From Actinomycetes bacterium (lineage in GTDB: Bacteria; Actinomycetota; Acidimicrobiia; Acidimicrobiales; JAMCPL01): a stretch of DNA of 64,000 bases. The stretch covers positions 6,302-70,301 of the forward strand of contig JAKBVZ010000010.1 of NCBI GenBank assembly GCA_021841005.1. Reading direction: 5' to 3'. The position numbers and the translations under genes were made by a program. This document shows positions 789-48,871 of this stretch, in pieces. Within the stretch, counting starts at the first letter, position 1; each line of letters begins with the position of its first letter. The notes below the pieces were generated by a model that worked only from the letters and a program-made list of their open reading frames with translations, did no database searches and was not told where the DNA came from.

Positions 789-820
789 TGCACGGGCTGC
801 GGCATAGTGGCCGCAGCAGA
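789..820. repeat. Solo copy of the CACTAT-loop hairpin element, inverted orientation, no flanking duplication
   Basis: tgcacgg-GCTGCGGC-ATAGTG-GCCGCAGC-aga is the reverse complement of the cores at 33476-33510 and 36246-36280. It lies between convergent genes. Confidence 0.85.
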
Positions 821-830
821 GAAGGAGCGG

Positions 831-1574
831 TCAGCCCTTATTCGCGCCGTGTGTCCTCACAAAATCGTTAACTGCATAGTAAGCATCTATGGACTCCCCT
901 GCGTCACCCCAGAATCCCTCCAGGATGTCGTAGGCAGCCGTGCCTGCTTCTACATAGAAGTTGTTCACATCGGTAATCTCCAGCTCCCCTCTTGCCGAGG
1001 GTTCGAGATCGTGCACCATCCTGAAAACTTCAGGATCGTACAGGTAGATGCCCGTCACCGCCAATTTGCTCGGAGGATCACTTGGCTTTTCAATGATACG
1101 TATTATCTCCTCTTGATCCCCGAACTCCGCTACTCCAAGGCTCTGAAGATGGTTTACCTCATGTTCCTCCCACAACAAGAGTTGCGCACCGGATCCCTTG
1201 CCGGCAAACCTCTCTATGCTCGGTCGCAGAGACATCTCCAGTATGTTGTCAGCAAGCATCACAGCCACAAGATCATCTCCTACAAAGCGCTCTGCGAGGC
1301 CGAGTGCATCTGCAATACCGGCAGCCTGTTCCTGGTAAGCATAGGCAAGGCGATCTATGCCGTACTCGTGGCCATTGCCGAGCAACCGGAGGAACTCTCC
1401 GGCGTGGGTACCGCCGGTAACCAGCATCAGCTCGGTAATACCGGCCTTGACAAGCGCCTCTACGGCATAGGCAACCATGGGACGATCCCCGATGGGCAGG
1501 AGATGCTTGTTGGTGATCCGCGTCAACGGGTATAGCCTGGTACCGCTTCCACCTGCCAGGATTACGCCTTTCAT
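831..1574 (-). CDS. Sugar-phosphate nucleotidyltransferase (glucose-1-phosphate thymidylyltransferase-like)
   Basis: The ORF spans 831-1631. The ATG at 1572-1574 gives MKGVILAGGSGTRLYPLT, the RmlA-type GxGTRL motif. Confidence 0.8.
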   Translation of the reverse strand: MKGVILAGGSGTRLYPLTRITNKHLLPIGDRPMVAYAVEALVKAGITELMLVTGGTHAGEFLRLLGNGHEYGIDRLAYAYQEQAAGIADALGLAERFVGDDLVAVMLADNILEMSLRPSIERFAGKGSGAQLLLWEEHEVNHLQSLGVAEFGDQEEIIRIIEKPSDPPSKLAVTGIYLYDPEVFRMVHDLEPSARGELEITDVNNFYVEAGTAAYDILEGFWGDAGESIDAYYAVNDFVRTHGANKG

Positions 1575-1696
1575 AAATATGTCCTCCTTCCTTGAACGAT
1601 TACCTTTCGTGATATACTCGCTAACGACCACTCATGTAAACTGGCGGTGCCGGTCAGCGCAGGCATCCACTCCTCGAATACATATCTATAATCTAC

Positions 1697-2713
1697 ATGC
1701 CTCAGATAGTGCGTCTGGAGTACAGTACTGATAGTAACATGGAAACCACACCCGAACCGCACTTGCCCTTCTCCTCTCCCACTCCATCGGCTGCAACGCT
1801 GCACGTGCCACCTGTCCATGTGCGGGGACTCACCAAGAAGTTCCGTAACGGTGTCGTAGCGGTAAACGGTCTGGACCTGAAGGTCGAAGCAGGTCAGGTA
1901 TTCGGACTCCTCGGCCTCAACGGCGCAGGAAAGACCACTACCCTGAGGATACTCCTCGGCTTGGTACGCCCATCGAGCGGCACTGTGCACATTTTTGGCC
2001 ATCCGGTCACTCCCGGTTCCTCGGTCCTCGGTCGAGTGGGGTCTGTAGTGGATACCCCTGGATTCGTGCCACACCTCACAGGACTGCAAAATCTCAGGAC
2101 ATACTGGGAAGCGGTTGGGCAGGACCGCCGGTCGCAGGCAATTGATGATGCTGTGAAGATGGCCAACCTGGAAGGAGCCATCGATAGAGAGGTCCGTAGC
2201 TACTCATTTGGCATGCGCCAGCGACTCGGAATAGCCAGGGCGCTACTCGGCAACCCACCCTTGCTGATACTGGACGAGCCGACTACCGGACTCGATCCCA
2301 AGCAAGTACGAGAGGTGCGGTCGCTTATACGCATACTGTCCCAGCAGGGCAAGACCATCCTGCTCTCATCGCACCTCCTTGGCGAGGTGGAGCAGATCTG
2401 CTCGCACGCCGCCGTAATCCATCATGGCAAGCTAATGGCAAGCGGCTCACTGGCAGACCTCACCAAGGCAGGCACGGCGCTCTACCTCGAAGTCGACAAC
2501 ATCTCTGCAGCAATGACCGTACTCCGCTCTACGGTAGGCGTCACAGATGTGCGTCAGGAGAGCGATGGAATACTTTTGGAAGTGGCCGAGCGGATGGAGC
2601 GCGAAACCATACCCAGGGTCCTCGTCGCCGCCAATATAGGGATAAGGGCCATCCTGCCAAGAAGAAGGCTGGAGGATGCATTCCTTGGAATGATAGAGGA
2701 ACAGGACGTGTGA
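1697..2713 (+). CDS. ABC transporter ATP-binding protein
   Basis: Walker A GLNGAGKTT, signature SFGMRQRL and Walker B LLILDEPT are present. An alternative start lies at 1739. Confidence 0.9.
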   Translation: MPQIVRLEYSTDSNMETTPEPHLPFSSPTPSAATLHVPPVHVRGLTKKFRNGVVAVNGLDLKVEAGQVFGLLGLNGAGKTTTLRILLGLVRPSSGTVHIFGHPVTPGSSVLGRVGSVVDTPGFVPHLTGLQNLRTYWEAVGQDRRSQAIDDAVKMANLEGAIDREVRSYSFGMRQRLGIARALLGNPPLLILDEPTTGLDPKQVREVRSLIRILSQQGKTILLSSHLLGEVEQICSHAAVIHHGKLMASGSLADLTKAGTALYLEVDNISAAMTVLRSTVGVTDVRQESDGILLEVAERMERETIPRVLVAANIGIRAILPRRRLEDAFLGMIEEQDV

Positions 2714-2789
2714 CCGCGGGATCCGCTGCGGCCACTATGTCGCTGCCCGTGTTCCTAGGAATGGTAGAGGAGATGCACGCGTGACCCGC
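2681..2789 (+). repeat. Degenerate hairpin element (2716-2751) flanked by a diverged ~35-bp direct duplication of the ABC ATPase stop / permease start junction
   Basis: 2681-2715 and 2752-2786 match at 28/35 positions (period 71). The core GCTGCGGC-CACTAT-GTCGCTGC has two stem mismatches. Confidence 0.75.
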
Positions 2790-8730: not shown

Positions 8731-8770
8731 GATGAAATCGGCAGGATGAAGATGAAATCGGCAGGATGAA
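8731..8770. repeat. Tandem duplication, 20 bp x2
   Basis: GATGAAATCGGCAGGATGAA occurs twice, in the intergenic region. Confidence 0.9.
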
Positions 8771-11580: not shown

Positions 11581-14068
11581 TCAAAATCTCTCCCAGTGCG
11601 CCAAGAAATCGATCATTCTCCTCCCTGCTACCGACGGTCACTCTGAAACATCCCTCCAAACCGGGAGCTTCAGAGAAATCACGAATCAGGATGGAACGTG
11701 CCAGCAATGCATCCATCAGCTGCACCGACTCGGTGTCCAGGGGACGGAACAGCAGGAAATTGGCCTGCGATGGCCATACAGCTACCGGCAAATCCGCCAA
11801 CCTTGCAAACATTCTATCTCTCTCGCGCGTGATCGCACTCACACGATCCTGCAATTCACCAACGTGTTCGAGCGCCACTAGGCCAACCTCCTGCGAGATG
11901 GCGTCAATGTGGTACGGCAGGGCAACCAGATCGCATGCCTGCACTACGGAAGGATCTGCGATCATGTAGCCGATTCGCATGGAAGCAAGTGCCCACACCT
12001 TGGAGAAGGTCCGCACAACGACCAGTCTTTCCTGTCCCTTGCAATTGATCGCCGCCGGATCCAGAACAGCATCCGACGTAAACTCCCCATAGGCGGCATC
12101 CAGTATCACCAGTCCCGAAGAGAGCCGTAGCACCTCTTCTACGACCTCCATCGGCTCCAACATCCCAGTTGGGTTGTTGGGAGAGCAAAGGAATATCACA
12201 TTGGGATCGTAGCTCCTGATGGCATCACGCATACGGTCCATATCCATGTCAAAGTTGTCCCGCCGCATTATGGAATGCACCAATGTCTGAGTAATAGCGG
12301 CTATCCTACTGTGCATCTGGTAGGTAGGTTCGAAGACCAGCGCACCACGACCATGACCACCGTAGGCCAGCAGCAGGCATTGGAGCACCTCGTTGGAACC
12401 ACGCCCGACAAAGATGTTTTCCGGATCCGTACCTATCCAATCCGCCAAGCCGGCTCTCAGGCCGGCGGCACGGCGATCCGGATACCTGTTGGTCTCCAAC
12501 GATGCGATCCGGCTGGTGATCTCCTCCTTCCACCCGTCCGGAACCGTAAAGGGATACTCGTTTGCATTGATCTTCACCTCGACTCGAGGCTGCGGGGAGG
12601 AGTAACCGGAAAAGGAAAGCAGATCATCCCTTATGCGAACGCCGGCTACTGACGATGATTCGCTGCCTGGAATATGAGACGACGGGGTGCCATCGAGTCT
12701 CATCTGCACCGCAAGCGCATGGGTGGGAAGCCCTTCAAACCCCGCGATGGTGGCGACCGGGCCAGCAAACTTCCTCGCAGCACCCGCCGATACATGGACA
12801 GAGTGCATCACCTTGGAAAAGTCGCGAGCACCAAGCGCTGATGCAAACCGAGCCGTCCTTGCAGTAGGTAGAACATGGTTGGGCCCCGCAAGGTAGTCCC
12901 CGAAGGCTGCCGCCGAATACGGACCGGTGAATATCGCCCCCGCCGAGCGCAGCCGGGGCAACATTGCTTCCACGCTGCCAGCATCGTCGCTAAGGATTTC
13001 CAGGTGTTCCGGAGCGATCGTGTTCGACACTGCCACGGCCTCATCCAGGCCACTTACCAGTATCGAATAGCCATTACCTGAAAGGGTGGCCTCGATGTCA
13101 GCTCTCCGTGGCGAATCCGATACCAGCCTGCCAAGAGCTTCTTCGACTCTTTCCAGCAAAGGCAGCGACCACGATACAAGCCACGACATTCCATAAGGCC
13201 CGTGCTCTGCCTGGACCGCCAGATCGGCGGCCGCCCATTCCGGGTTGACTGATTCATCCGCGATAATGACTACCTCCGAGGGACCGGCAAAAGCACTGGG
13301 GATACCCGTGATACCGGCAACCTGGCGCTTGGCCTCCGACACATAGATGTTTCCCGGACCGGTTATCACGTCGACCGGCTGGATGGTTTCAGTACCGTAA
13401 GCCATGGCCGCAATCGCCTGCGCGCCACCCACTGCGTATATCTCTCCTATACCTGCAATAGCCGCTGCCGCCAAAGTCTCGGGCGCCGGCAACCCGTCAG
13501 GCCCAGGCGGAGAGCATAGTACGATATTTTCCACTCCTGCGCTCATGGCTGCTGCTGCGCACATGAGAACGCTGGAGGGGTAACGTGCCCTCCCACCCGG
13601 AGCATATATGCCGGCCCTCTCTACGGGGCTGCGCCAGGTACGCACCTCTATCCCCGCGTCCACGTACATATCACCAAGATGGACAGCGTTGCCGGGAGTG
13701 CCCGTATCCCGGCGTGAGTCCACTGGGTGGATGCCTTCCGCAGCTGCCTCATGGCGGTGGTAGTCGAGTAGGCGGCTATAGGCCAGGGTAAGTGCCTGCA
13801 CCAGTTCGGCCGGCGCTGCCACGAGCACATTACCTGCGATCTCGTGAGGAACTTCGAGTTGCGCCGGTACCACCCCGTCGAATTGCCCGGACAGTTCCAG
13901 AAGCGCCTTATCCCCCCCCTCTCGTACCCTGCTCAAGATTTCCGCCACCTTGCCTGCGGTATCGCCAATAGAACCGCCCGCTGGCAGTGACGTAAGAGAT
14001 GGAAGCACGCCAGGAATATCTCCGGCGCTGGTAGCGACAAGGTTCAGACGAGTAAGCAATGAGGGCAT
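11570..14068 (-). CDS. hisD/hisC: Fused histidinol dehydrogenase (N-terminal) and histidinol-phosphate aminotransferase (C-terminal)
   Basis: A single uninterrupted ORF. The HisD part starts at MPSLLTRL (ATG 14068), with a linker [18 protein letters not shown] near 12640-12700. The HisC part follows ([30 protein letters not shown]). The ORF is open up to 14203, but that extension is unlikely to be coding. Confidence 0.85.
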
Positions 14069-14162
14069 ATACAACAATGGTAGCCGGAACGCGATGGTGG
14101 CCGGAACAGGCAATGCCCGGAACGCTCCGGAACGCTCCGGAACAGGATGCCATCCCGAACGC

Positions 14163-14191
14163 GTGAAAGTGCCCACAAGGGGCACTTTCAC
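14163..14191. promoter_or_regulatory. Perfect 12-bp-stem palindrome in the his operon leader
   Basis: GTGAAAGTGCCC-acaag-GGGCACTTTCAC, about 95 nt upstream of the proposed hisD start. Confidence 0.3.
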
Positions 14192-14382
14192 TTGACGCGT
14201 CAACGGGCGGCGGTTCCCGTATGACGCTCACTTGGGAACCTGGTGGCGGGAACCGGTTCCAAAAGACATTATAGCATCCCCGCCAGCCGCTGTCGAACAA
14301 ATACGATCAACGATTACAAAATATTGACCTAATGGTCAGTTGCAGGCATGGCTTCTTATGCAATACTGGTAACCTGATGCCC

Positions 14383-14484
14383 GGAGACCGCCAACCGCGC
14401 TATCACTGCAATAGCCGGCAAAGGAAAGACAGTGCTCCTGCATCGGCCTGTGCAGGAGACCGCCAACCGCGCTATCACTGCAAT
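14383..14484 (+). repeat. Perfect 30-bp direct repeat pair separated by a 42-bp unique insert (period 72)
   Basis: GGAGACCGCCAACCGCGCTATCACTGCAAT occurs at 14383-14412 and 14455-14484. The insert ends in CCTGTGCA. Confidence 0.9.
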
Positions 14485-14555
14485 GCCGGTAGGCCATCTT
14501 GCCACACTTCCCGGCTGCAGGAATTATTCTGCCTCCAGATGCGTTGTACAGGTAC

Positions 14556-15161
14556 ATGAACGGACAATCATTTTCCATCACGTATGACTACCTGTGCCCT
14601 TTTGCCAGGAACGCCAACGAGCATGTAGTAACAGCTTTGAAGGATGGCGCCCCGTGGGATGTGCATTTCCAGCCTTTCTCGCTCCACCAGGCCCATCTGG
14701 AAGAAGGGGAAGCAGCCATCTGGGATACTCCATCACGACATAAAGATGTCCTCGCCCTCGAGGCAGGCCTCATGGTGCGGGAAAGATACCCGGACCGCTT
14801 CCTCGATGCCCATCTGGCACTCTTTGCGGCCCGGCATGATTCCGGCAGGGACATCACTGACGAAGCTGTTGTCCGGGAAGCGCTTACGCCCCTAGATGTG
14901 GACGTAGAAGCCCTGATGAAAGCCGTGACAGACGGGGAGGCTCACGGCATGCTCAAGAAGGAACACGTCGATGCAGTAGACACTTACGCGGTATTCGGCG
15001 TACCTACGTTTATCGTGGGAGATGTTGCTGCTTTTACCAGGATCATGACACGTCCCGGCAGAGATGCCAAGTTGGCTCGCGAGAGCATCCAGCGTATCCT
15101 TGACTTGCTTACCGATCACCCCGAACTCAACGAGATCAAGCAGACCAAAGTCCCGTTCTAG
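14556..15161 (+). CDS. DsbA-family thioredoxin-fold protein
   Basis: MNGQSFSITYDYLCPFARN N-terminus (DsbA/HCCA isomerase-like CPF motif) and VFGVPTF near the C-terminus. Confidence 0.7.
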   Translation: MNGQSFSITYDYLCPFARNANEHVVTALKDGAPWDVHFQPFSLHQAHLEEGEAAIWDTPSRHKDVLALEAGLMVRERYPDRFLDAHLALFAARHDSGRDITDEAVVREALTPLDVDVEALMKAVTDGEAHGMLKKEHVDAVDTYAVFGVPTFIVGDVAAFTRIMTRPGRDAKLARESIQRILDLLTDHPELNEIKQTKVPF

Positions 15162-15280
15162 GAGCGTGAGTCAGAATCCTAGGTCGCTAACCGGCAACTC
15201 CGTATCTTGTGGTGCCGACACATAGTAACCACAACATCTTGTGTTCAATTTATATCATAACAGGGTTATGACCCACGCTA

Positions 15281-15404
15281 CTAGGTGTCTGGTGTCAAGC
15301 CGTTCACAGCTCGAAAGAAGCGGCTGTACCCCCGTGATGGTGAGGTCAGGTGCTCGCGCGTTGTCGATTATGTGCGCAATCCCGTAAAAACACCAGACAC
15401 CTAG
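15281..15404. repeat. 124-bp segment bounded by perfect 15-bp inverted repeats
   Basis: CTAGGTGTCTGGTGT at 15281-15295 and its reverse complement at 15390-15404. The region is non-coding, between the dsbA-like gene and tRNA-Ser. Confidence 0.8.
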
Positions 15405-15480
15405 CCGGTTAGTGCTTGCCTACCAACGTTTCGGTATCCACCTGCAACGGTAACCCATAGTGGCTCTGCGACAGCTGGAG

Positions 15481-15567
15481 CGGAGGAGGTGGGATTCGAA
15501 CCCACGGTGGCCTTGCGACCACAACGGTTTTCGAGACCGTCCGATTCGTCCACTCTCGCACTCCTCC
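15481..15567 (-). tRNA. tRNA-Ser (anticodon CGA)
   Basis: Hand-folded cloverleaf: acceptor GGAGGAG/CTCCTCC, anticodon stem ACGGT/ACCGT with loop CTCGAAA, long variable arm, T arm GTGGG-TTCGAAT-CCCAC. 87 nt, with no encoded CCA. Confidence 0.9.
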
Positions 15568-15842
15568 AGGCAACACACGCAAGTATCTACTGGACCACCT
15601 GCCATCGGTGACGCAAGGTCGGCTGAGCCGTTGCTAACCGGTTGAGCCGTCGCCAATGGCTCAACCCAGTGGACATCCATGAAATCCTACCAGCAACGAC
15701 ACTGCAACCAGGTGCCGACAGCTGTCGCCCAAACCAGCCACCACCATATAGATGCGTACGGACGCTACAACCAAGTACCACCAACTGTAGCACGTGCGCA
15801 GGATGCACTGGTGCATTCGCCAAGCCAAGCGAGCGTTCTCGT

Positions 15843-16451
15843 CTATGCAGGCTTGCGCACCCTCACCAGTGTATCTATTGCCGTACGCTCGCCTTCATCC
15901 GTACTGACAATACGCTTAGCCCTTTCTGCTTTCTCTATCACCAATCCCTGGAAATCCTCGGCAATCCGCTCAGGCGTGAAAAGTACCTCGGGAAAGGGTG
16001 GCCCGCCGTAGCCGTCTGTCAAGTTGGTCAGGTCATGGCCGATCACCAGGATGGTCCCACCTGGCACCAGCGCCTTGACCGCATTCTTGTGTACATTGGT
16101 AAGATCCGACGGAGGCATATGCACATATAGTGACACGATAAGATCGTATGCCAGCTCAGGAGGCTGCCACTCACGCAAGTCGGCTGCAATCCAGTCTACC
16201 GGCAGCCCCTTCTCGATAGCCAGCTGCTTTCCCTTCTTCAGACCCTCCTGCGAAAAGTCAACCCCGGTAGATTGCCATCCCTGCGAAGCCAGCCAGATGG
16301 CATTCCTGCCCTCGCCGCAAGCCATATCCAAGGAACGACCAGGATCCATGCCTTCAACCTCCTGTACCAGCAACTGGTTGGGTTCCCATCCCCACACCAG
16401 ATCGTTGGCTCTGTATCGCTGATCCCACTCCGACTTTTCCATATATATCAC
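15843..16451 (-). CDS. Class I SAM-dependent methyltransferase
   Basis: Motif I LDMACGEGRNAIWLA and a size of about 200 aa. Confidence 0.8.
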   Translation of the reverse strand: MIYMEKSEWDQRYRANDLVWGWEPNQLLVQEVEGMDPGRSLDMACGEGRNAIWLASQGWQSTGVDFSQEGLKKGKQLAIEKGLPVDWIAADLREWQPPELAYDLIVSLYVHMPPSDLTNVHKNAVKALVPGGTILVIGHDLTNLTDGYGGPPFPEVLFTPERIAEDFQGLVIEKAERAKRIVSTDEGERTAIDTLVRVRKPA

Positions 16452-16747
16452 AGACCTCCAATCTGCCCACTATGTAGCAACCGGCATGGCACGCCTACAG
16501 GCCACGCATCATTGCTCGGCATAACCCACGATCCGGCAACATGCGCCATGGGAGCAAGCAACATCGTATCGCCATACCCGCAGCACCGCACCGGCGGCAC
16601 TTCTCAATACAGTTTATCGCCTGGTTCGCATCTCGAATCGGTTGGGCATGAAAATCCTGATACGGGTGAGCAGGCTGGCGACGTTGCGCCCAAAATAGCT
16701 ATGATATCTTATGGTTCTTCGGTATCCGGCCAGTGGGACGTGCCCTG

Positions 16748-18397
16748 TCATGTCGTAACGCGTCTCACTCCTGGGACTTTGTCCAATAGCTCACCCGGAA
16801 TGTCCTCCTTATCGAGTCCGTCCTCATCCAACCCCGCATCCTCGACGCCGGCACCTATCCTGGCAGGAACAGCAATGGGATCCAGATCGTCCGGTGCATC
16901 ACCAGGGCGTATGCTCGCTTCCTCCATCACGTACTCCCCCTCTTCGGTACGGCTTAGGATGACGCTTCGCTTAGGCTCATCCGTCACGGGCATCGCCGCC
17001 AGCTCCTTGCAAATACGGTACGTCACAATGCCCACCACTACTGGCACAGCTATGACGAGAAACCGGAAGGACCACAAAACGGTATTGAGCGACACCTGGA
17101 AGAAATTGGCAAGCACATCCGTAGCGCTTGCGCTGAACAAAGTAAAATAAAACGCGACTCCTGCAGCTCCGAGCGCGGTACGCTTCGGCCTGTATCTCGG
17201 AAAGTCCAGGATGTTGTGCACAGCACGATCACCCGTTATCCTCGCCTCTACAAACGGCCACGCGTAGAACAGCGTAAAGGTGAGGCCAGGGAAGAGCACC
17301 GCCGGAAGCAGAACTTCGAGTGGAATAGTATGGCCAAAGCCGGTGAACTCCCAAGATGGCATGATTCTCATCGCCCCATCCAGCCAACCCATGTACCAGT
17401 CCGGCTGGACCGCATATGTAACCTTGTAGGGTTGGTAGGGGCCGTACTGCCAGATCGGGTTGATCTGGACGAGGCCACCAAGCATCCATAGCACGCCCGT
17501 GACGATGAAGAAGAGTCCCAGAGTCTTTGCCATGAACGTCGGGTACAGAGGCGATCCGACCACATTGTGCTCGGTCCTGCCCTTACCAGGAAATTGGGCA
17601 TGCTTCTGGCGAACCAGCATGAAGAGATGCGCCCCTATAAGAGCGGCAATGATGATTGGAACGATCAGCACATGGAGGATGAACATCCTCGGCTCAATGA
17701 TGCCGTTGCCAGGGAACACTCCCCCAAACAGGAAGAATGCCAGATAGGATCCGACCAGAGGTATCGACAGGATGATCGAGTATGCAATCCGAAGGCCGGT
17801 ACCGGAAACAAGATCGTACGGAAGGGAATAGCCCAGGAAGCCATTGACAATAGCCAGCATGAGCAGGGTGACGCCTACCATCCAGTTGAGTTCGCGAGGC
17901 TTGCGGAACCCTCCTGTGAAAAATATCCTCATCATGTGTATCGCTATGGCACCGACAAAGACATCGGCGGCCCAGTGATGCATCTGGCGAATCACCATAC
18001 CACCTCTCACGCTGAACGATATCTTGAGGGTGGATGCATACGCCTCCGACACCAGCTTTCCCCTCAATGGAGCGTAAGCGCCGTGATAGATAATCTCCTT
18101 GGTGGATGGCACGAAGTACAGCGATAGGAATACACCTGTAAGAACCAGCACGACAAAAGAATAGAGAGCTATCTCCCCGAGTAGGAAAGACCAGTGATCG
18201 GGAAAGATCTTGTCAAGGAGCGATCTACCCTTGCCAACCCCGAGCCTGTCGTCCAGCCAGCCGAGCGCACGTTCGGTAGCACTATCGAAACGCCCTTGAT
18301 GGCGCGCTCCAGTACCGCTGCCACCCGATCCAATGCCGACACTACTTGACCCCTGACCAGTAGTCGTTGACTCCTTGGATGTTGCCGTCTCGCTCAC
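16748..18397 (-). CDS. qcrB: Cytochrome bc1 complex cytochrome b subunit QcrB
   Basis: 549 aa polytopic cytochrome b. It sits in the qcrC-qcrA-qcrB order typical of actinobacteria. Confidence 0.9.
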   Translation of the reverse strand: MSETATSKESTTTGQGSSSVGIGSGGSGTGARHQGRFDSATERALGWLDDRLGVGKGRSLLDKIFPDHWSFLLGEIALYSFVVLVLTGVFLSLYFVPSTKEIIYHGAYAPLRGKLVSEAYASTLKISFSVRGGMVIRQMHHWAADVFVGAIAIHMMRIFFTGGFRKPRELNWMVGVTLLMLAIVNGFLGYSLPYDLVSGTGLRIAYSIILSIPLVGSYLAFFLFGGVFPGNGIIEPRMFILHVLIVPIIIAALIGAHLFMLVRQKHAQFPGKGRTEHNVVGSPLYPTFMAKTLGLFFIVTGVLWMLGGLVQINPIWQYGPYQPYKVTYAVQPDWYMGWLDGAMRIMPSWEFTGFGHTIPLEVLLPAVLFPGLTFTLFYAWPFVEARITGDRAVHNILDFPRYRPKRTALGAAGVAFYFTLFSASATDVLANFFQVSLNTVLWSFRFLVIAVPVVVGIVTYRICKELAAMPVTDEPKRSVILSRTEEGEYVMEEASIRPGDAPDDLDPIAVPARIGAGVEDAGLDEDGLDKEDIPGELLDKVPGVRRVTT

Positions 18398-19428: not shown

Positions 19429-19474
19429 GAGGCAGTTCCCACTATCGACAATCTTCCACTCCAGACATCGGCGT

Positions 19475-30742: not shown

Positions 30743-30850
30743 ATGTCATACGCTCCAGTTACAGGTCGTTACAACGTTCTAGATACGCTACGGCCACTAT
30801 GCCGTAGCCCGGGGGAGATGCCATACGCTCCAGTTACAGGTCGTTACAAC
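30743..30850 (+). repeat. Variant hairpin element (30776-30817) flanked by a 33-bp direct duplication (32/33 identical, period 75)
   Basis: The duplicated sequence is ATG(T/C)CATACGCTCCAGTTACAGGTCGTTACAAC. The hairpin GCTACGGC-CACTAT-GCCGTAGC carries a compensatory stem pair. Confidence 0.9.
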
Positions 30851-33384: not shown

Positions 33385-33459
33385 CGGGAAGTAGCGCAGT
33401 TTGGTCAGCGCGCAGCGTTTGGGACGCTGAGGCCGGGGGTTCGAATCCCCCCTTCCCGA
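33385..33459 (+). tRNA. tRNA-Pro (anticodon TGG)
   Basis: Hand-folded cloverleaf: acceptor CGGGAAG/CTTCCCG, anticodon stem CAGCG/CGCTG with loop TTTGGGA, T arm GGGGG-TTCGAAT-CCCCC; 75 nt. Confidence 0.9.
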
Positions 33460-33547
33460 CCGCTACATCATCGTCAGTCCGCTGCGGCCACTATGCCGCA
33501 GCTCGTGCATGTTCGAATCCCCCCTTCCCGACCGCTACATCATCGTC
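33439..33547 (+). repeat. 35-bp hairpin element (33476-33510) flanked by a perfect 37-bp duplication of the tRNA-Pro 3' end plus trailer
   Basis: GTTCGAATCCCCCCTTCCCGACCGCTACATCATCGTC occurs at 33439-33475 and 33511-33547. The insert is AGTCCGCTGCGGCCACTATGCCGCAGCTCGTGCAT. Confidence 0.95.
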
Positions 33548-35276: not shown

Positions 35277-36992
35277 CTATCTTACTCTTGCACGAAGGCG
35301 CACACCGGGAATCAGCCGCGGTATATCTTCATCTGCATCTGCAATGGCTGTGCCGGCATGCTCCGTACCGGTGTCATTTGTGCCGGCATGCTCAGTACCG
35401 CCGACACCCAGCCGGAGCGCCTTATCCCTTACCGGTACCGGATACTCTCCGGTCAGGCAGGCGGTACAGAAACCTCCACCGGGCACTCCAATGGCCTTGT
35501 AGAGGCCTTCAAGGCTCAAGTAAGCGAGCGAGTCGACTCCCAGGTATCCTTCTATTTCTCTGACCGTCCTGTTGGACGCCAGCAACTCTGATCTCTCAGG
35601 GGTATCTATGCCATAAAAGCACGGCCACCGGAAGGGTGGGGAAGAGATACGTAAGTGCACCTCCCTGGCTCCTGATTCCTTGAGCATCCTCACCATCTCC
35701 CGGGTAGTGGTCCCTCTCACGATCGAGTCATCCACTACGACGAGCCGCTTCCCTGAGATGGATTCCTTCAGCGGGTTGAGCTTGCGCCTTACGCCTCTAA
35801 CCCGGGCCATCTGGCCAGGAGTGATAAACGTACGCCCGATATAGCGGTTCTTTACAAGTCCTTGGCCGTAAGGGATGCCGCTTGCCTTGGAGTAGCCCTC
35901 TGCTGCGGGGACACCCGAATCTGGAACGCCCATCACCATATCTGCACGAACGGGTAACTCGGCTGCCAGGTACTCACCCATCCTCCTCCTCGCCCCATGC
36001 ACCTCGGTTCCGTAAAGATTGCTGTCAGGCCGCGCAAAGTAGACAAACTCGAATATGCACAGGTGCGGATCGCCGGCTCCCGCAGGCGACAGACGCAGCG
36101 ACCGCACCCCGCCCGCATCTATCACCACCAATTCACCCGGCTCGATCTCACGCAGGAACCTTGCTCCGATCACATCCAGAGCAGGCGTCTCAGAGGCAAG
36201 GACATAGCCTGGTTCCCCACCTGCTACACCTACTCCACCCTCCAGAGGTCTGCTGCGGCCACTATGCCGCAGCCCGTGCACTGGTTCCCCACCTGCTACA
36301 CCTACTCCACCCTCCAGTCCACCTGGTACGCCTGATCCCCGCTCACCATCTCTGGATACACCGTTCGATCCATTACCTGGCAGCACACCGAGGCACAGCG
36401 GCCGGAAGCCGTCCGGATCCCTCGCTCCGAAGATATGCTTGGCATCCATCGCTACAAACGAGTAGGCACCCTGCAGCCTGGGGAGCACTTCCACCATCGC
36501 CGCTTCCAACAACCCATCATTACCGGTACCGGCTCCTGTCCCAGCCCCCCTGGACGCCATTGCTCGCACTACAGCCTTGGAAAGCAGCTCCATCACAAAA
36601 TCGGAATCGGTGGTCAACACCTCCGGTATCATCCCAGCTTCCAGCCCAAGCTCCTCCACGTTGGTCAGGTTGCCATTGTGCGCAAGAGCCAGTGAAGCAC
36701 TCCCGACCGACCTGAATACCGGCTGGGCATTCCGCCACGTCGAATCGCCGGCAGTGGAATAGCGAGTATGGCCTATAGCAATACTTCCCGGCAGGCAACC
36801 GATGGTGCGCTCGTCGAAGACCGACGATACGAGGCCCATGTCTTTCACTACGGTTACAAGCTCGCCGTCACTCACGGCCATACCTGCTGATTCCTGGCCA
36901 CGGTGCTGCAGTGAATACAGGCCGTCAAAAGTAAGCTGTGCCGCTCGATAACCGGGGGCATACACCGCAAACACCCCGCAGGCCTCCTTCAT
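35277..36992 (-). CDS. purF: Amidophosphoribosyltransferase
   Basis: Propeptide plus N-terminal Cys (MKEACGVFAV), PRTase motif VVVDDSIVRGTT. It carries a 72-bp in-frame insertion at 36209-36317 and a long C-terminal tail. Confidence 0.9.
   Translation of the reverse strand: MKEACGVFAVYAPGYRAAQLTFDGLYSLQHRGQESAGMAVSDGELVTVVKDMGLVSSVFDERTIGCLPGSIAIGHTRYSTAGDSTWRNAQPVFRSVGSASLALAHNGNLTNVEELGLEAGMIPEVLTTDSDFVMELLSKAVVRAMASRGAGTGAGTGNDGLLEAAMVEVLPRLQGAYSFVAMDAKHIFGARDPDGFRPLCLGVLPGNGSNGVSRDGERGSGVPGGLEGGVGVAGGEPVHGLRHSGRSRPLEGGVGVAGGEPGYVLASETPALDVIGARFLREIEPGELVVIDAGGVRSLRLSPAGAGDPHLCIFEFVYFARPDSNLYGTEVHGARRRMGEYLAAELPVRADMVMGVPDSGVPAAEGYSKASGIPYGQGLVKNRYIGRTFITPGQMARVRGVRRKLNPLKESISGKRLVVVDDSIVRGTTTREMVRMLKESGAREVHLRISSPPFRWPCFYGIDTPERSELLASNRTVREIEGYLGVDSLAYLSLEGLYKAIGVPGGGFCTACLTGEYPVPVRDKALRLGVGGTEHAGTNDTGTEHAGTAIADADEDIPRLIPGVRLRARVR
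36209..36317 (+). repeat. 35-bp hairpin element (36246-36280) flanked by a perfect 37-bp duplication, in frame inside purF
   Basis: CTGGTTCCCCACCTGCTACACCTACTCCACCCTCCAG occurs at 36209-36245 and 36281-36317. The insert is AGGTCTGCTGCGGCCACTATGCCGCAGCCCGTGCA. The 72-bp total equals 24 codons. Confidence 0.95.
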
Positions 36993-41934: not shown

Positions 41935-43932
41935 ATGACAAGCTCATTCTCTTGGAGGCTGCCCGAGAAGGACAAACCCTGGGTAATGAGAACCTACTCC
42001 GGGCATTCAAGCGCCGCCGCCTCCAACGAACTCTACCGTTCCAACCTCGCAAAAGGGCAGACGGGCCTTTCCGTGGCCTTTGACCTCCCGACACAGACCG
42101 GCTACGACCCGGATGAACCTGAGGCCAGGGGCGAGGTAGGCAAAGTCGGAGTTCCTGTTGTGCATCTTGGGCATATGCAGCAACTGATGGACTCCATACC
42201 TCTGGACAAGATGAACACATCCATGACCATCAATGCCACCGCACCATGGCTACTCAGCCTCTACATAGTACAAGCAGAGAACTCAGGCGTGGACCGGAGC
42301 CTGCTTACAGGAACCACGCAAAACGATATACTAAAAGAGTACCTGTCCAGAGGCGCATTCATATTCCCGCCGGCGCCGAGCCTGCGCCTTACCGTAGACC
42401 TGATCACCTACTCGGTGAAACACGTACCCAAGTGGAATCCCATGAACATTTGCGGGTACCACCTTCAGGAAGCCGGAGCAACCCCTTCTCAAGAAGTGGC
42501 TTACGCACTTGCCAATGCCATCGACGTGCTCGATGCCGTGAAGAGATCCGGGCAGGTGGATGACGACGACTTCCCTCGCGTCGTGGGTAGGATGTCATTC
42601 TTTGTCAACTCTGGGATAAGATTTGTGGAAGAAACCTGTAAGCTTAAGGCGTTTGCGGCCAATTGGGACAGGATATGCAGCGAACGTTACCACGTCACCG
42701 ATCCCAAGCTGAGACGCTTCCGCTATGGAGTGCAGGTAAACTCTCTTGGCCTCACCGAAGCACAGCCCGAGAACAACATCGCCAGAATCATCCTCGAAAT
42801 GCTGGGCGTAACCCTGTCGCGTTCTACAAGGGCGCGAGCAGTGCAACTCCCTGCATGGAACGAGGCACTGGGCTTGCCACGCAAGTGGGATCAGCAGTGG
42901 TCCTTGAGAATGCAGCAGGTCATGGCGCTGGAGACAGACCTACTTGAATACCCTGACATATTCGAAGGATCAAGAGTCATCGAGTCCGCGGCTGTGCACA
43001 TAGCAGAGGAAGCGTGGGCGGAGATGGAGGAGATCATCGCTCTGGGAGGCGCCTTCTCCGCAGTGGATGAGATGAAAATGCGCCTGGTTGCAAGCCAGCG
43101 CCGGCGGGTAAGCAGGATCGAATCGGGAGAGCTTCCGGTCGTGGGAGTCAACTGCCACCGCGAAACCGAGCCATCGCCCCTTGACAGCCGGGACGGCGCT
43201 GCAAACGTGCTCAAGGTAAATCCAGCCATGGAGAAGGAGTTGAGGGAAGAAGTGGAGAAATGGCGTTCCCGCAGGAACGCAAGAGATGTCACGCGAGCGA
43301 TCGATAGGTTGAAATATGCCTGCCAATCGGGAGAAAATATCATGGAAGCATCCATAGATCTCGCAAGAGCAGGTGGTACGACCGGCGAATGGGCAGGCAC
43401 GCTCCGGGACGTGTTCGGCGACTACAGAGCTCCTACTGGCGTCGGCGGCGCAAAGGTAAACGGCTCTCGTGAGGAACTCCGCACAGCGGCTGGTAAGGTA
43501 CGAGCACTATCCGCAGGCTCAGGATCCGCACCACGCATCCTGGTGGCAAAGCCAGGCCTGGATGGTCACTCCAACGGGTCCGAGCAGATAGCACTGGCCG
43601 CCAGGGATGCTGGCTTCGAGGTCATATATCAGGGGATCCGCACCACACCGGAACAGATAGCATCAGCCGCCAGGGATGAGGATGTCGACCTCGTCGGTAT
43701 ATCAATACTCTCAGGCAGCCACATGGAGCTCATACCGGAGATACTGGACCTGCTGGCCACCTCGGGCGTAAACGCCCCCGTAGTGGCCGGTGGGATCATC
43801 CCACCGGACGATGCCGCCATATTGATGCGTCAAGGTGTACGAGCCATATACACTCCCAAGGATTTCAAGCTTGGCGATATCATAAGCGATATGGCGGACT
43901 TGGTAAAGGAGTACCGTTCCATCCGGGCATAG
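41935..43932 (+). CDS. Fused acyl-CoA mutase (catalytic plus B12-binding domain; MeaA/ethylmalonyl-CoA mutase-like)
   Basis: PWVMRTYSGHSS and GTTQNDILKEYLSRG in the barrel, and a C-terminal B12 domain (KPGLDGHSNG); 665 aa. Confidence 0.75.
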   Translation: MTSSFSWRLPEKDKPWVMRTYSGHSSAAASNELYRSNLAKGQTGLSVAFDLPTQTGYDPDEPEARGEVGKVGVPVVHLGHMQQLMDSIPLDKMNTSMTINATAPWLLSLYIVQAENSGVDRSLLTGTTQNDILKEYLSRGAFIFPPAPSLRLTVDLITYSVKHVPKWNPMNICGYHLQEAGATPSQEVAYALANAIDVLDAVKRSGQVDDDDFPRVVGRMSFFVNSGIRFVEETCKLKAFAANWDRICSERYHVTDPKLRRFRYGVQVNSLGLTEAQPENNIARIILEMLGVTLSRSTRARAVQLPAWNEALGLPRKWDQQWSLRMQQVMALETDLLEYPDIFEGSRVIESAAVHIAEEAWAEMEEIIALGGAFSAVDEMKMRLVASQRRRVSRIESGELPVVGVNCHRETEPSPLDSRDGAANVLKVNPAMEKELREEVEKWRSRRNARDVTRAIDRLKYACQSGENIMEASIDLARAGGTTGEWAGTLRDVFGDYRAPTGVGGAKVNGSREELRTAAGKVRALSAGSGSAPRILVAKPGLDGHSNGSEQIALAARDAGFEVIYQGIRTTPEQIASAARDEDVDLVGISILSGSHMELIPEILDLLATSGVNAPVVAGGIIPPDDAAILMRQGVRAIYTPKDFKLGDIISDMADLVKEYRSIRA

Positions 43933-46387: not shown

Positions 46388-46420
46388 CATACGTACTGTA
46401 ATTCTGTTAATATATTTCGT

Positions 46421-46921
46421 ATGTCAATCTCTTACGCCCTTCCCCTGGAAGAAGAATTACAAGAAGATACAGGTAAATCCCGGCCGGCAACCACGATGCT
46501 GGGCCACCGCCGCCGCACTGTAGGGTTCGACCTGTGGATCGATCAGGCAAGTATGCGACAACTACCTGCACAGGATATACGGCATCTGATCGGCGATACC
46601 CACTTGAGCCTGTCCACTATCTACCGATCCGAACAAGCCACACAAGAACAAGCCACACAAGACGGAAGCACCACCGATCTGAAACCATGCCGGAAGGCGG
46701 CTCTTCGTAACCACACCGCCGGGTTGGCTTTCCTGGATGGAAGTCCCGCCGATATGCCGATCCGGGCCCGATTCCTGGCACGCGAGGAAGGGGTGCACAT
46801 CACCGATGCCGCCATTGCTGAGATGCTCATAGCTCTGTCCGACCGGCTTCATTGGTCAAAACTGGAAAAGCTCGAGGAAATCGACAACATACCCGCCTAC
46901 GTCCCGTTGCCGGAGTCTTGA
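46421..46921 (+). CDS. Hypothetical protein
   Basis: 166-aa ORF in a gap between purK and icd, with no recognisable motif. It contains a 15-bp x2 in-frame tandem repeat. Confidence 0.45.
   Translation: MSISYALPLEEELQEDTGKSRPATTMLGHRRRTVGFDLWIDQASMRQLPAQDIRHLIGDTHLSLSTIYRSEQATQEQATQDGSTTDLKPCRKAALRNHTAGLAFLDGSPADMPIRARFLAREEGVHITDAAIAEMLIALSDRLHWSKLEKLEEIDNIPAYVPLPES
46631..46660. repeat. 15-bp in-frame tandem duplication (EQATQ x2)
   Basis: GAACAAGCCACACAA occurs twice. Confidence 0.9.
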
Positions 46922-46923
46922 GC

Positions 46924-48441
46924 ATGGACACATCCATTACCTCCCGCACATCCACGCTGCACACCGGCAACCAGCCCCGGCCTGCGCACTCGATAACTGA
47001 CACTGTTGCCACACCCATTACGGTCGCCTACGGAGATGGCATCGGCCCGGAAATCATGGCGGCGACACTGCGCATACTAGAAGCGGCCGGCGCCAACTTA
47101 GATGTGGAGACCATAGAAATCGGCGAGTCGGTCTACCGCCGGGGTGTCACTGCCGGCATAGAACCTTCATCCTGGGACTCCATCCGGCGCACAAAGGTAT
47201 TCTTGAAAGCGCCCATCACCACACCTCAGGGCGGAGGATTCAAAAGCCTGAATGTAACGGTCCGCAAGACCCTTGGCCTGTTTGCAAACGTCCGCCCCTG
47301 CATAGCATACGACCCATTCGTCAGCACCAAACATCCCGGTATGAATGTAGTCATAGTAAGGGAAAACGAAGAGGATCTGTACGGCGGGATCGAGCACCGC
47401 CAGACCGAAGACGTATACCAGTGCCTCAAGCTCATAACGCGGCCGGGCACAGAGAGGCTGGTGCGGTATGCATTCGAGTACGCGCGCCGTTACGGGCGCC
47501 ACAAGCTTACCTGCTTCACCAAGGACAACATCATGAAGATGACCGATGGCTTGTTCCATCGCGTCTTTGACGAAGTGGCGGCAGACTACCCCGATCTCGA
47601 ATCCGAACACTGGATTGTCGACATCGGCGCTGCCAAGTTGGCCGATACGCCGGAAGCCTTCGATATGATAGTCTTGCCAAATCTCTATGGCGACATACTT
47701 TCCGACGTTGCAGCGCAGATAGCAGGCTCCGTCGGCTTGGCTCCGAGTGCCAACATCGGTGAAGAAGTGGCTATGTTCGAGGCCATACATGGTTCAGCTC
47801 CGCGGCGAGCCGGCCAGGATATGGCCAACCCGTCAGGGCTTCTGCTGGCCGCTGTGCAGATGATGGTGCACATAGGCCAGAGCGATGTGGCCGCACGCAT
47901 CCACAATGCATGGCTCCGCACCATTGAAGACGGTGTCCACACGTACGACATCTTCGATCCGCAAGTATCTACTGAAAAAGTCGGTACATCAGGCTTTGCC
48001 GATGCCGTGATCCAACGACTGGGTCAGCTGCCGCAGCAGCTTCCGGCTGCCGGCTATGCAGCCGAAGCCGGCCCCATAAGCATCCAGACACACCCAGGCA
48101 CTCGCGCCACCAAGGAGCAGGTAGGAATAGATGTATTCATAGATTGGATCGCATCCGTGGATGACCTTGCCGCCATCCTGGAGACACAAGCCAAGCCGGA
48201 TTTTCGGCTGCTGATGATCACCAACCGTGGCCAGAAGGTATATCCCGGCGGGTTGCCGGAAACTTTTTGCGTAGACCACTGGCGTTGTCGTTTCGAAGCC
48301 ATCGAAGGCGGTGCGGTCACCACCAAGCAAGTCATTGATCTGCTGGACAGGCTGAACAGTGCGGGGGCACCCTTTATAAAGACTGAAGGGCTATACAGTT
48401 TCGATGGAGTTCCAGGCTACTCATTGGGTCAGGGACAGTAA
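46924..48441 (+). CDS. icd: Isocitrate dehydrogenase (isocitrate/isopropylmalate dehydrogenase family, long form with C-terminal domain)
   Basis: Family motifs NLYGDILSD and IHGSAP. ATG 46924 lies directly after the upstream stop. Confidence 0.8.
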   Translation: MDTSITSRTSTLHTGNQPRPAHSITDTVATPITVAYGDGIGPEIMAATLRILEAAGANLDVETIEIGESVYRRGVTAGIEPSSWDSIRRTKVFLKAPITTPQGGGFKSLNVTVRKTLGLFANVRPCIAYDPFVSTKHPGMNVVIVRENEEDLYGGIEHRQTEDVYQCLKLITRPGTERLVRYAFEYARRYGRHKLTCFTKDNIMKMTDGLFHRVFDEVAADYPDLESEHWIVDIGAAKLADTPEAFDMIVLPNLYGDILSDVAAQIAGSVGLAPSANIGEEVAMFEAIHGSAPRRAGQDMANPSGLLLAAVQMMVHIGQSDVAARIHNAWLRTIEDGVHTYDIFDPQVSTEKVGTSGFADAVIQRLGQLPQQLPAAGYAAEAGPISIQTHPGTRATKEQVGIDVFIDWIASVDDLAAILETQAKPDFRLLMITNRGQKVYPGGLPETFCVDHWRCRFEAIEGGAVTTKQVIDLLDRLNSAGAPFIKTEGLYSFDGVPGYSLGQGQ

Positions 48442-48578
48442 CACATCAGCTGCACTGGCATCCGATGAATGGTGCGGAGAGGATAGCATAAGATTCCTCG
48501 CCGGCCAAGAACCAGCCACCGTTCATAAGATATTTCACCAGTATCAGGCCATGCCGTCAACCAGCAAAATCCATCCAG

Positions 48579-48651
48579 TGGCCAGGACCGGCGTCGATCC
48601 GGTGACCTCACGGTTTTCAGCCGCGCGCTCTGCCAACTGAGCTACCTGGCC
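48579..48651 (-). tRNA. tRNA-Phe (anticodon GAA)
   Basis: Hand-folded cloverleaf: acceptor GGCCAGG/CCTGGCC, D arm GCTC-AGTTGGCA-GAGC, anticodon loop CTGAAAA, T stem ACCGG/CCGGT; 73 nt. Confidence 0.9.
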
Positions 48652-48760
48652 AGGCCATCGTGGTGGGAAACCACTACCGCCCCACCCCCACCATACCATG
48701 ATGGTTGAGCTTCTTCGCTCTCGAGACCTCATAGCTGGCTATGGTATTATACCATCTCCA

Positions 48761-48871
48761 CGGTACAACCGCACCAGGCATTACGGGCAAGGCCACATAC
48801 CGATTGCAATTGGCTATGACGGCACGATAGAACTTCGGTACAACCGCACCAGGCATTACAGGCAAGGCCAC
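48761..48871 (+). repeat. 36-bp direct repeat pair (35/36 identical) separated by a 39-bp unique insert (period 75)
   Basis: CGGTACAACCGCACCAGGCATTAC(G/A)GGCAAGGCCAC occurs at 48761-48796 and 48836-48871. Confidence 0.9.

Follow-up and report, generated by a model that had tools for sequence, protein, structure and literature searches.

The window, by which we mean the whole 64,000-nucleotide stretch of DNA from an uncultured acidimicrobial bacterium (Actinomycetes) that was analyzed, contains seven loci in which a short insert lies between two direct copies of a locus-specific segment (A1 and A2), together with one copy of a hairpin-type element that lacks such a duplication. This solitary copy (789-820, minus strand, core 796-817) occupies the 49 bp that separate two convergent genes and was found in every assembly seen; its flanks form no recognizable duplication, as an ungapped comparison by eye gives a weak identity of about 15/36. 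The seven duplicated loci all lie on the plus strand. An old event at 2681-2787 combines A1 (2681-2715), an insert of the hairpin type at about 2716-2751 (register 8/5), and A2 (2752-2786), with a repeat of 35-36 nt at roughly 78% identity and a period of 71; the duplication covers the stop/start boundary between the ABC ATPase and permease genes. The locus at 19402-19504, which is absent from an earlier note on the same DNA, duplicates the junction at which the stop and start codons of the cytochrome c and Rieske (qcrA) genes overlap; A1 (19402-19433) and A2 (19473-19504) form a 32-nt repeat (88% identity, period 71) around an insert (19434-19472) that holds AGTTCC-CACTAT-CG. Divergent intergenic regions hold the events at 14383-14484 (hisD and DsbA-like genes) and 30743-30850 (whiB and arsA-like genes). 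In the first of these, a perfect 30-nt repeat encloses a 42-bp insert (14413-14454) with the 3' end GCCTGTGCA; the locus approaches 36+36 when one 1-nt indel is allowed, and the insert, at 15/25 identity to the hairpin type when right-justified by eye, may be a degenerate example of it. In the second, A1 (30743-30775) and A2 (30818-30850) are 33 bp long and identical at 32/33 positions, and the 42-bp hairpin-type insert (30776-30817) carries the stem variant GCTACGGC/GCCGTAGC.

Perfect duplications of 37 bp surround 35-bp hairpin inserts at a tRNA-Pro gene (33439-33547; A1 33439-33475, insert 33476-33510, A2 33511-33547) and in purF (36209-36317; A1 36209-36245, insert 36246-36280, A2 36281-36317). 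The former duplication runs from the T-arm to the 3' end of the tRNA plus 14 nt, and the tRNA remains intact by way of A1; the latter event adds 24 codons in-frame to purF, encoded on the minus strand, within a Gly-rich loop. Between a tRNA-Phe gene and the end of a PHP-domain gene, a 36-bp repeat identical at 35/36 positions (48761-48871; A1 48761-48796, A2 48836-48871) flanks a 39-bp non-hairpin insert (48797-48835) that showed no structure on folding and for which the searches made returned no donor. A further repeat pair at 43582/43651 (period 69) was set outside the class, because it lies within a methylmalonyl-CoA mutase B12-binding domain and is conserved in distant relatives.

A scan of every offset from 20 to 400 bp, at an identity of at least 22/30 and with two microsatellite arrays left out, returned 12 direct-repeat pairs in the window, nine of which fall at offsets of 69-76 bp; 20 Markov shuffles of the window produced 0-2 pairs each (mean 0.5) across all offsets. 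All six loci that the earlier note had described were recovered at the same coordinates. The regularity that it called a "fixed 71-75 period" is better expressed as a duplication of 33-37 bp plus an insert of 35-42 bp, with a mode of 36-37 plus 35. Unworn events have a duplication of 35-37 bp and an insert of 35 bp. Inserts of 35 bp occur at 33439 and 36209 in the window and at L019:1339, L019:2494, L019:11609, L031:10290 and L031:3295 elsewhere, and the event at 2681 (35-36 bp) is the eighth of this class, across which the duplication measures 35-37 bp. The length of the insert is nearly constant whatever its sequence, as the 35-bp class includes both hairpin and non-hairpin inserts, and the other events measure 39-42 bp. 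These eight events bear out the ruler-like reaction that the earlier note had proposed. The same signature was found beyond the window, at three further loci in an extra 36 kb of the window species, at four in sister species and at one in another genus, where the lengths (39+40 bp) again bring duplication and insert close to each other. In the window species there are about 10 loci per 100 kb, and the original observation is confirmed and is larger in extent than had been noted. Related genomes also hold repeat-insert-repeat structures at other spacings (66, 77 and 87 bp), and these genomes carry many small slippage polymorphisms, both variable-number repeats and tandem duplications of 9, 6, 15, 21 and 31 bp.

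Empty sites, with a single A and no insert, were identified for five events, four in near-identical strains and one in a sister species. In GCA_027390695.1 the tRNA-Pro site is empty: this allele has a single A and is exactly 72 bp shorter, within 21 kb that otherwise differs at two microsatellites only. The empty purF allele, in a Logan contig 100% identical over 13.4 kb, is likewise 72 bp shorter with one A, and the purF orthologues of sister species are without the insertion. At the end of a YkuD gene, an allele in a MEGAHIT k141 contig is 71 bp shorter, and the JAMCPL01 species is empty at this site as well. At the 30743 locus the sister species (L031, L032) holds A exactly once and is 75 bp shorter, and the other-genus locus (L028) has an empty allele in L027 that is 79 bp shorter. 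Among genomes with no other difference over 13-21 kb, the two microsatellites aside, the events at tRNA-Pro and in purF segregate independently of each other. The earlier note had read these loci as insertions with a long target-site duplication rather than as tandem duplications, and had suggested looking in orthologous loci for alleles shorter by one unit; the exact single-A alleles (71, 72, 72 and 75 bp, plus 79 bp in the other genus) agree with it on both points. They therefore identify one-step insertions with target-site duplication that are still happening, and the process is recent and active. Ordinary minisatellites, that is, tandem duplications of 71-75 bp with a diverged junction, or regulatory duplications kept by selection, could be argued from the several duplicated segments that are promoters or gene junctions and from JAMCPL01 locus L002, where A seems to be present three times around two inserts of the hairpin type, which suggests that unit amplification can occur. 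Strains, however, vary by the presence or absence of the unit and never by its copy number, the sequence before A1 and after A2 is unlike the insert, the same hairpin sits between unrelated duplications, and the polymorphic events lie within sequence of 99.3-100% identity, which rules out a diverged copy as the origin of the insert. These results go most of the way to refuting the minisatellite reading, and we regard it as highly improbable.

About half of the inserts carry GCTGCGGC-CACTAT-GCCGCAGC, within the small palindromic sequence GTCY-GCTGCGGC-CACTAT-GCCGCAGC-YCGTGCAC. The core GCTRCGGCCACTATGCCGYAGC has five matches in the window at three or fewer mismatches, against 0.01 expected, and the copy at 796-817, which the earlier note had correctly reported as inverted and without a duplication, is among them. 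The hairpin is present in at least eight copies across two species, in which about 33 nt are conserved as a block, its conservation ends at the insert borders, and a long duplication surrounds seven of the eight hairpin copies examined. Within the 35-mer it occupies differing registers (5/8, 6/7, 8/5 and 2/11), which fits the capture of a fixed length out of existing copies rather than fixed transposon ends. Eight non-hairpin inserts, mutually unrelated and unlike the hairpin, share the geometry of 35 plus 35-37 bp; the five that were folded are all unstructured, and inverted repeats are lacking in the non-hairpin inserts. The uncharacterized miniature palindromic element that the earlier note offered as its alternative is disfavored on these grounds, since several events with the same geometry, two of them recent and polymorphic, have unrelated and unstructured inserts, and the register varies. 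Variable register and sequence-diverse inserts of fixed length together argue for a length-measuring integrase, as opposed to a fixed-end transposon or a minisatellite.

With respect to the origin of the inserts, no protospacer or donor was found for any of them in viral, metagenome, phage and plasmid collections, which barely cover this community, or in the 622 kb of loci examined. None of the inserts resembles its flanks significantly, and over all loci the similarity of insert to flank is not above chance. Isolated hints of likeness between the 3' end of an insert and its 5' flank were seen at L019:2494 (GGAGAACTCAAG versus GGAGAGCTTAAG) and at 48761, where GGCTATG is shared in register. 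Such likenesses, the structures at 66, 77 and 87 bp and the abundance of slippage polymorphism would all be in keeping with template switching during replication or repair (FoSTeS/MMBIR type), which involves no integrase; a nascent strand would copy A, jump to a foreign template, possibly an abundant hairpin-forming single-stranded DNA, return upstream of A and copy it again. A fixed 35-bp insert with a fixed 36-37 bp duplication in at least eight independent events is not what template switching predicts, however, nor is the mechanism favored by the chance level of insert-to-flank similarity or by junctions that show no visible microhomology, and we consider it improbable. Among the duplications that were compared, no target motif resembling a leader or a repeat stood out clearly; several begin with GTT(C/G), and position 2 is T in 6/8 hairpin-type events, a bias that is not significant after multiple testing.

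We tentatively propose, with a probability of about 0.45, that a Cas1-Cas2-type integrase working outside any CRISPR array makes these insertions. To our knowledge, the Cas1-Cas2 spacer integrase is the only characterized machine with this geometry, in which insert length approximates target stagger because the same complex spans both. Each locus would be the scar of a single integration event, in which each 3' end of a short linear fragment (35 bp in unworn events) would be joined to a different chromosomal strand, with 36-37 bp of target between the two points of joining; filling of the two single-stranded gaps would then duplicate 36-37 bp of target on both sides of the insert. The architecture, the lengths, the empty sites, the diversity of the inserts, the shifting register and the continuing activity are observed, whereas the staggered strand transfer, the identity of the enzyme and the reason for the hairpin preference are inferred. 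The enzyme would gauge length and ignore the ends of the insert, such that any 35-mer could be inserted, and the palindromic hairpin sequence would be taken up by preference at slightly shifted registers, which would let it spread through the genome as mobile elements do. The long duplication would also restore the feature that the insertion splits, whether a promoter, a stop codon, a stop/start junction or the 3' end of a tRNA, and this would account for the position of the surviving events at gene boundaries. Several points count against Cas1-Cas2, among them the failure to find protospacers or a clear target motif. Some older events depart from the modal lengths (33+42 and 36+39 for duplication and insert), and one hairpin makes up about half of the inserts, whereas ordinary adaptation, so far as we are aware, does not reuse one sequence. 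The density of loci implies a few hundred ectopic events per genome, far above anything that we know to have been reported for Cas1-Cas2. The earlier note described the window as free of cas genes, transposases and integrases, and precomputed Pfam lists for the gene calls of the window agree with this; neither cas1/cas2 (in such lists) nor a CRISPR array was found in about 200 kb of non-redundant sequence drawn from the window species and its relatives, a share of their genomes too small to argue either way. If the Cas1-Cas2 reading is true, a CRISPR spacer integrase apparently acts all over the chromosome.

A dedicated transposase or integrase of a new kind, unrelated to Cas1, might instead move very short non-autonomous elements by a 36-37 bp staggered cut, with the hairpin as its preferred substrate and the other inserts as small element families or mis-captured DNA. 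The conserved hairpin block in its many copies, the high copy number in a lineage-specific burst and the compensatory nature of the stem variant at 30787 are all what such an enzyme might leave behind, and transposases with long duplications do exist (IS1549/IS1634; PMC2266710). This remains an unlikely account, as the inserts share no common ends, the hairpin shifts its register, the unrelated non-hairpin inserts have an identical geometry, two transposase-binding ends do not fit in 35 bp, and duplication length varies widely in IS1549/IS1634 and is nearly fixed here.

Several known systems resemble these loci in part. Like REP/REPIN sequences (RAYT), the hairpin is short, GC-rich and scattered through intergenic regions and operon junctions; like Rickettsia palindromic elements, one copy is in-frame inside a protein (purF); and like mycobacterial MIRUs, some copies lie at stop/start junctions. 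We know of no long target duplication in REP or Rickettsia palindromic elements, and MIRUs consist of a single family-wide unit in tandem arrays of variable copy number, whereas in these loci the duplicated sequence is specific to each site and one geometry is common to unrelated inserts. A REP/RAYT origin was accordingly rejected on the long duplications around the hairpin copies, and a MIRU-type minisatellite on presence/absence variation among strains and inserts unrelated to their flanks. A MITE/DDE derivative was also rejected, given the four hairpin registers, the non-hairpin inserts without inverted repeats and duplications of 33-37 bp where 2-14 bp would be expected. IS1549 and IS1634 likewise are bacterial insertions flanked by direct repeats of unusual length, and one of the two is an actinobacterial case, but they measure 1.5-2 kb and carry a transposase gene, and their duplications vary from copy to copy between 8 and 514 bp (PMC2266710), in contrast to the 35-bp insert and near-fixed duplication length seen here.

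The casposase, a Cas1-family integrase, makes staggered target cuts followed by fill-in, much as we propose here, and some casposons target tRNA 3' ends. Casposons nevertheless span multiple kilobases and have terminal inverted repeats, Cas1 and PolB, whereas the cargo here is 35-42 bp, non-coding and without terminal inverted repeats. Their target-site duplications are 1-27 bp (median 15; PMC4046053), and a casposon was rejected on the size and non-coding nature of the insert and the 33-37 bp duplication. In E. coli, Cas1-Cas2 has been shown to integrate off target, with duplication of a pseudo-repeat and the founding of new arrays (Nivala et al., 2018, as summarized in 10.1101/148544 and PMC6698737); the former source treats natural off-target cases as circumstantial only and describes E. 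coli as needing artificially up-regulated acquisition machinery. Like the neo-CRISPR loci of that type I-E system (Nivala, Shipman & Church, 2018), the loci here consist of a pseudo-repeat from local DNA on either side of a spacer-sized insert, with a ruler-set duplication length, heterogeneous inserts and possible second use of a site (L002). Unlike off-target integration in E. coli, the events described here are natural, frequent and ongoing, and have one palindrome as the source of about half of the inserts. The E. coli type I-E dimensions are about 28 + 33 bp, as against 36-37 + 35 bp here. Two hallmarks of Cas1-Cas2 integration are nonetheless found in these genomes, namely a one-step target duplication of repeat length (33-37 bp, and 39 bp in another genus) and a fixed, spacer-like insert length whatever the sequence.

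The loci described here share one layout, in which copies of a target segment (A) stand to the left (A1) and right (A2) of a short insert; sizes are given as duplication plus insert length, and loci are named by their start coordinates. All six that an earlier note had reported in the window were recovered where it placed them. Two of these, 33439 and 36209, consist of perfect 37-nt repeats flanking a 35-bp insert, and at 14383 a perfect 30-nt repeat extends to approximately 36 nt with one 1-nt indel. Divergence between the copies is slight at 30743 (33 + 42 bp; repeat 32/33 identical) and 48761 (36 + 39 bp; 35/36 identical), while 2681 is an older copy (35-36 + 35-36 bp) with a repeat identity of about 78%. 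A seventh locus at 19402-19504, overlooked previously, has a 32-nt repeat of 88% identity and a period of 71. About half of the inserts are of a palindromic type with a CACTAT loop (hereafter the hairpin), whose core, GCTRCGGCCACTATGCCGYAGC, occurs five times in the window against an expectation of 0.01, counting an inverted copy at 796-817 that has no visible duplication. A scan for repeat pairs at all offsets of 20-400 bp (at least 22/30 identity, two microsatellite arrays excluded) returned 12 pairs, nine of them at offsets of 69-76; 20 Markov shuffles of the window yielded 0-2 pairs each, all offsets taken together. One pair, 43582/43651 (window 43582-43678), is a 28-nt direct repeat of 86% identity and 69-bp spacing in a methylmalonyl-CoA mutase B12-binding domain. 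It was rejected as an eighth locus, being a similarity within the protein that is conserved in distant relatives (L004, L024). Simple tandem duplications are also seen in the window, namely one of 14 bp at 48879-48906 (ACAGGACCTCATTG x2), a few bp downstream of locus 48761, and a perfect one of 20 bp at 8731-8770 (GATGAAATCGGCAGGATGAA x2).

The host is an uncultured acidimicrobial actinobacterium, with its closest named PurF and YkuD homologues in Acidimicrobiales MAGs and Ferrimicrobium. The species has been assembled many times (NCBI MAGs, JGI 3300033990, ENA MEGAHIT contigs and Logan contigs), and these assemblies are mostly 99-100% identical to the window. Its NCBI assemblies include GCA_027390695.1, GCA_027390585.1, GCA_021828485.1 and GCA_023489365.1; sister species are represented by GCA_027387385.1, GCA_027387335.1 and JAMCPL01, and the other genus mentioned below by GCA_027388135.1. 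An additional 36 kb from the same species contained three further loci, all on one sequence (L019): a 36 + 35 bp event with an inverted hairpin at 1339, a 37 + 35 bp non-hairpin event at 2494, and a 36 + 35 bp non-hairpin event at 11609, on the stop codon of a YkuD gene. The density of events in this species is about 10 per 100 kb. A sister species carries events of its own, at L031:10290 (36 + 35 bp) and L031:3295 (35 + 35 bp); the former has no clean empty site, the window and L031 being too diverged downstream of whiB. Within a species-representative collection the hairpin pattern was present in a single genome, from a related species labelled JAMCPL01, and searches of viral and metagenome collections gave no match. 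Two hairpins in JAMCPL01 lie inside diverged duplications with periods of 71 and 72, and one of these loci has the appearance of a triplicated A interleaved with two inserts of the hairpin type. In another genus (L026:11667-11790 and L028:3900-4020), a duplication with 87-bp spacing and a nested 14-bp duplication likewise affects the 3' end of the YkuD gene, the gene end hit by the 71-bp event in the window's own species.

The earlier note had interpreted the loci as insertions with target duplication, and this is borne out by empty sites, alleles with a single A and no insert, at five loci. Over 21.4 kb, GCA_027390695.1 differs from the window only by two microsatellites and by the lack of exactly 72 bp at tRNA-Pro, where a single 37-mer is left. 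Similarly, over 13.4 kb a Logan contig matches the window at 100% identity, minus exactly 72 bp in purF, again with one 37-mer left; the PurF protein measures 547 residues in this empty allele vs. 571 in the filled one. Logan assemblies use k=31, which is shorter than the 37-nt repeat, so the assembly graph contains an "empty" path even when the allele is filled. The contig breaks at the tRNA-Pro repeat and continues unbroken through purF, which argues that the graph had no loop at purF, and the insertion is missing also from the sister-species orthologues. For the YkuD stop-codon event (36 + 35 bp), a MEGAHIT k141 contig without the event is exactly 71 bp shorter, and JAMCPL01 lacks the event as well. 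At the older locus 30743, the sister species has A as an exact single copy and is 75 bp shorter; an event of 39 + 40 bp in L028, from another genus (GC 50%), is missing in L027, whose sequence is shorter by exactly 79 bp. Genomes otherwise free of substitutions carry the tRNA-Pro and purF events in differing combinations, and both events are therefore very recent and independent. L011 (GCA_027387335.1) was dropped as a means of dating loci 14383 and 19402: it is identical to the window across both and, being a recombination mosaic, is uninformative. It matches window 13783-20100 at 100% from at least 13783 to approximately 19627 and then diverges sharply (94.5% identity over the full aligned stretch), a pattern that suggests recent recombination between sister species.

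Other differences among these strains are of a different scale. A 9-bp tandem array, (AACCTTGGG)n, at 22653-22787 lies in an ORF of 879 aa without a Pfam match (21412-24051, minus strand), and varies by 1-5 units among otherwise identical strains. Copy number is also strain-variable for a hexamer array, (AGTGGA)n, at 27632-27691 in a 583-aa HemY-like ORF, near which the sister species has an array of 14-nt units in its place. Comparison of L019 with L020-L023 revealed tandem-duplication polymorphisms of 21, 31 and 15 bp at L019 positions 4801, 19529 and 20631. Small-scale slippage is frequent in this lineage. In L013, what looked like a 114-bp deletion (window 12679-12795) that would split a hisD-hisC fusion was a run of N in the scaffold.

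Pristine events combine an insert of 35 bp with a duplication of 35-37 bp. A block of some 33 nt, (G)TCY-GCTGCGGCCACTATGCCGCAGC-YCGTGCAC, is common to the hairpin-type inserts; it occupies differing registers in the 35-mer (5/8, 6/7, 8/5 and 2/11 nt on either side), and conservation ends at the insert borders. The copy at 30787-30808 carries a compensatory change in its stem, GCTACGGC/GCCGTAGC replacing GCTGCGGC/GCCGCAGC, of which a copy in L001 has one side only. An Rfam search with the hairpin returned no family, the 12-bit match to CRISPR-DR16 being noise. Peptides that the hairpin would encode were tried as probes in local tests; the composite profile matched nothing, and single profiles of 10-11 residues gave E-values of 2.8 to 7000 at database size. 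As a sequence pattern, the loci fit none of the repeat families described. Among the inserts, eight have no relation to the hairpin or to one another, and folding of five of the eight revealed no structure. A search for donors of all eight in 622 kb of collected loci, and of six in INPHARED phages and PLSDB plasmids, found none, and protospacers of hairpin and non-hairpin inserts were absent from viral and metagenome contigs, INPHARED phages and PLSDB plasmids.

Were the loci minisatellites, each insert would be a noisy copy of its flank within a diverged tandem duplication. Local and end-anchored alignments of insert and flank were compared with shuffled or random controls at 10 loci, and the similarity was significant at none. 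The inserts are no more flank-like than chance, which removes the tandem-duplication model and leaves a minisatellite very improbable. Isolated resemblances remain at L019:2494, L019:11609 and window 48761. At L019:2494-2602, the resemblance is between the insert's 3' part and A1's 5' flank (GGAGAACTCAAG vs. GGAGAGCTTAAG), and at window 48761-48871 the same two parts have GGCTATG in common, in the same register; neither is significant across loci. Template switching in replication or repair, a further conceivable origin of the duplications, is judged unlikely.

Surviving events sit where the duplication repairs the damage done. Where the 3' end of tRNA-Pro was hit, A1 completes the tRNA; stop/start junctions are hit at 2681 and 19402, a stop codon at L019:11609, divergent promoter regions at 14383 and 30743, and L019:1339 lies just upstream of alaS. 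In PurF the result is an in-frame insertion of 24 codons within a Gly-rich loop. No target-site motif survives multiple testing. Synteny with the sister species (L031:7100-7170 vs. window 33461 onwards) stops exactly at the tRNA-Pro 3' end, beyond which the genes are different and include a DUF4232 gene and a toxin-antitoxin pair (PIN/PhdYeFM), a pattern suggestive of a site where islands integrate.

The earlier proposal of ruler-like integration is supported by the 35-bp inserts and 35-37 bp duplications. The activity required would insert short fragments of one set length irrespective of sequence, attacking the two target strands 36-37 bp apart, with the resulting gaps filled in later. The stagger is close to the insert length (36-37 vs. 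35 bp, and 39 vs. 40 bp in L028), as would be expected if a single complex gripped a straight duplex by both 3' ends and the target had to span the same distance. Cas1-Cas2 works in this way. We rank first a Cas1-Cas2-type integrase acting outside arrays, a plausible reading to which we assign a probability of roughly 0.45, on account of the stagger geometry, the duplication lengths of other enzymes and the reports of off-target integration in E. coli. The preference for the hairpin could, speculatively, arise if two same-strand copies pair via the palindrome into a duplex of about 22 bp with splayed ends of 6-7 nt, which would resemble the preferred prespacer shape. Against Cas1-Cas2 stand the deviations from the modal lengths (the 33 + 42 and 36 + 39 events); neither so high a frequency nor such reuse of a single sequence has, to our knowledge, been described for CRISPR adaptation. 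No cas genes or CRISPR arrays were seen in the DNA examined, a small part of the genomes. A dedicated integrase of a new type, with small element families, is a rather doubtful alternative. In L024, whose PurF is 75% identical, an IscB-like gene (Cas9_a + HNH_4, 641 aa) and TnpB and ISL3 zinc-ribbon fragments lie near the purF region (L024:302-2227 and 16604-16912), and no Cas1 was seen there.

It is possible, if tentative, that the 35-bp palindrome is a selfish "spacer" that spreads by repeated capture and insertion via a length-measuring integrase with a 36-37 bp duplication; this would be a promiscuously acting CRISPR adaptation module or else an uncharacterised enzyme with the longest fixed stagger known. 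If so, it would represent a new class of minimal mobile element without ends of its own, and also a case in nature of CRISPR-type integration remodelling genes, tRNA ends and operon junctions faster than point mutation. Should the enzyme be Cas1-Cas2, this would be the first natural population with common, ongoing ectopic spacer integration, visible as strain polymorphisms. It would bear on the birth of new CRISPR arrays, on the cost of adaptation to the host through damage to its own genome, and on the forms of DNA that serve well as prespacers, the case in point being a palindrome that might pair with itself to give a duplex whose ends are splayed. Any other enzyme would be an integrase that takes whatever 35-mer it is offered and keeps its stagger at 36-37 bp, which would be of mechanistic interest and perhaps of use as a tool. 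With either, the long duplication allows insertions to survive at tRNA ends, at stop/start junctions and inside proteins, and thus provides a distinct route of genome and protein-loop evolution; the insertion sites would also serve as sensitive strain markers.

We regard the phenomenon as an altered form of a reaction already known; the chance that it is something new instead is considerable. Known transposases generate target duplications of 2-14 bp. Those of casposases are 1-27 bp, with a median of 15 (PMC4046053), in contrast to 33-37 bp here, and those of IS1549 and IS1634 are long but highly variable, at 8-514 bp (PMC2266710), whereas the present ones are nearly constant in length. Off-target integration by Cas1-Cas2 is reported to produce, in E. 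coli, repeat-spacer-repeat units from ordinary DNA, like the loci described here, and its natural cases are circumstantial (10.1101/148544, PMC6698737).
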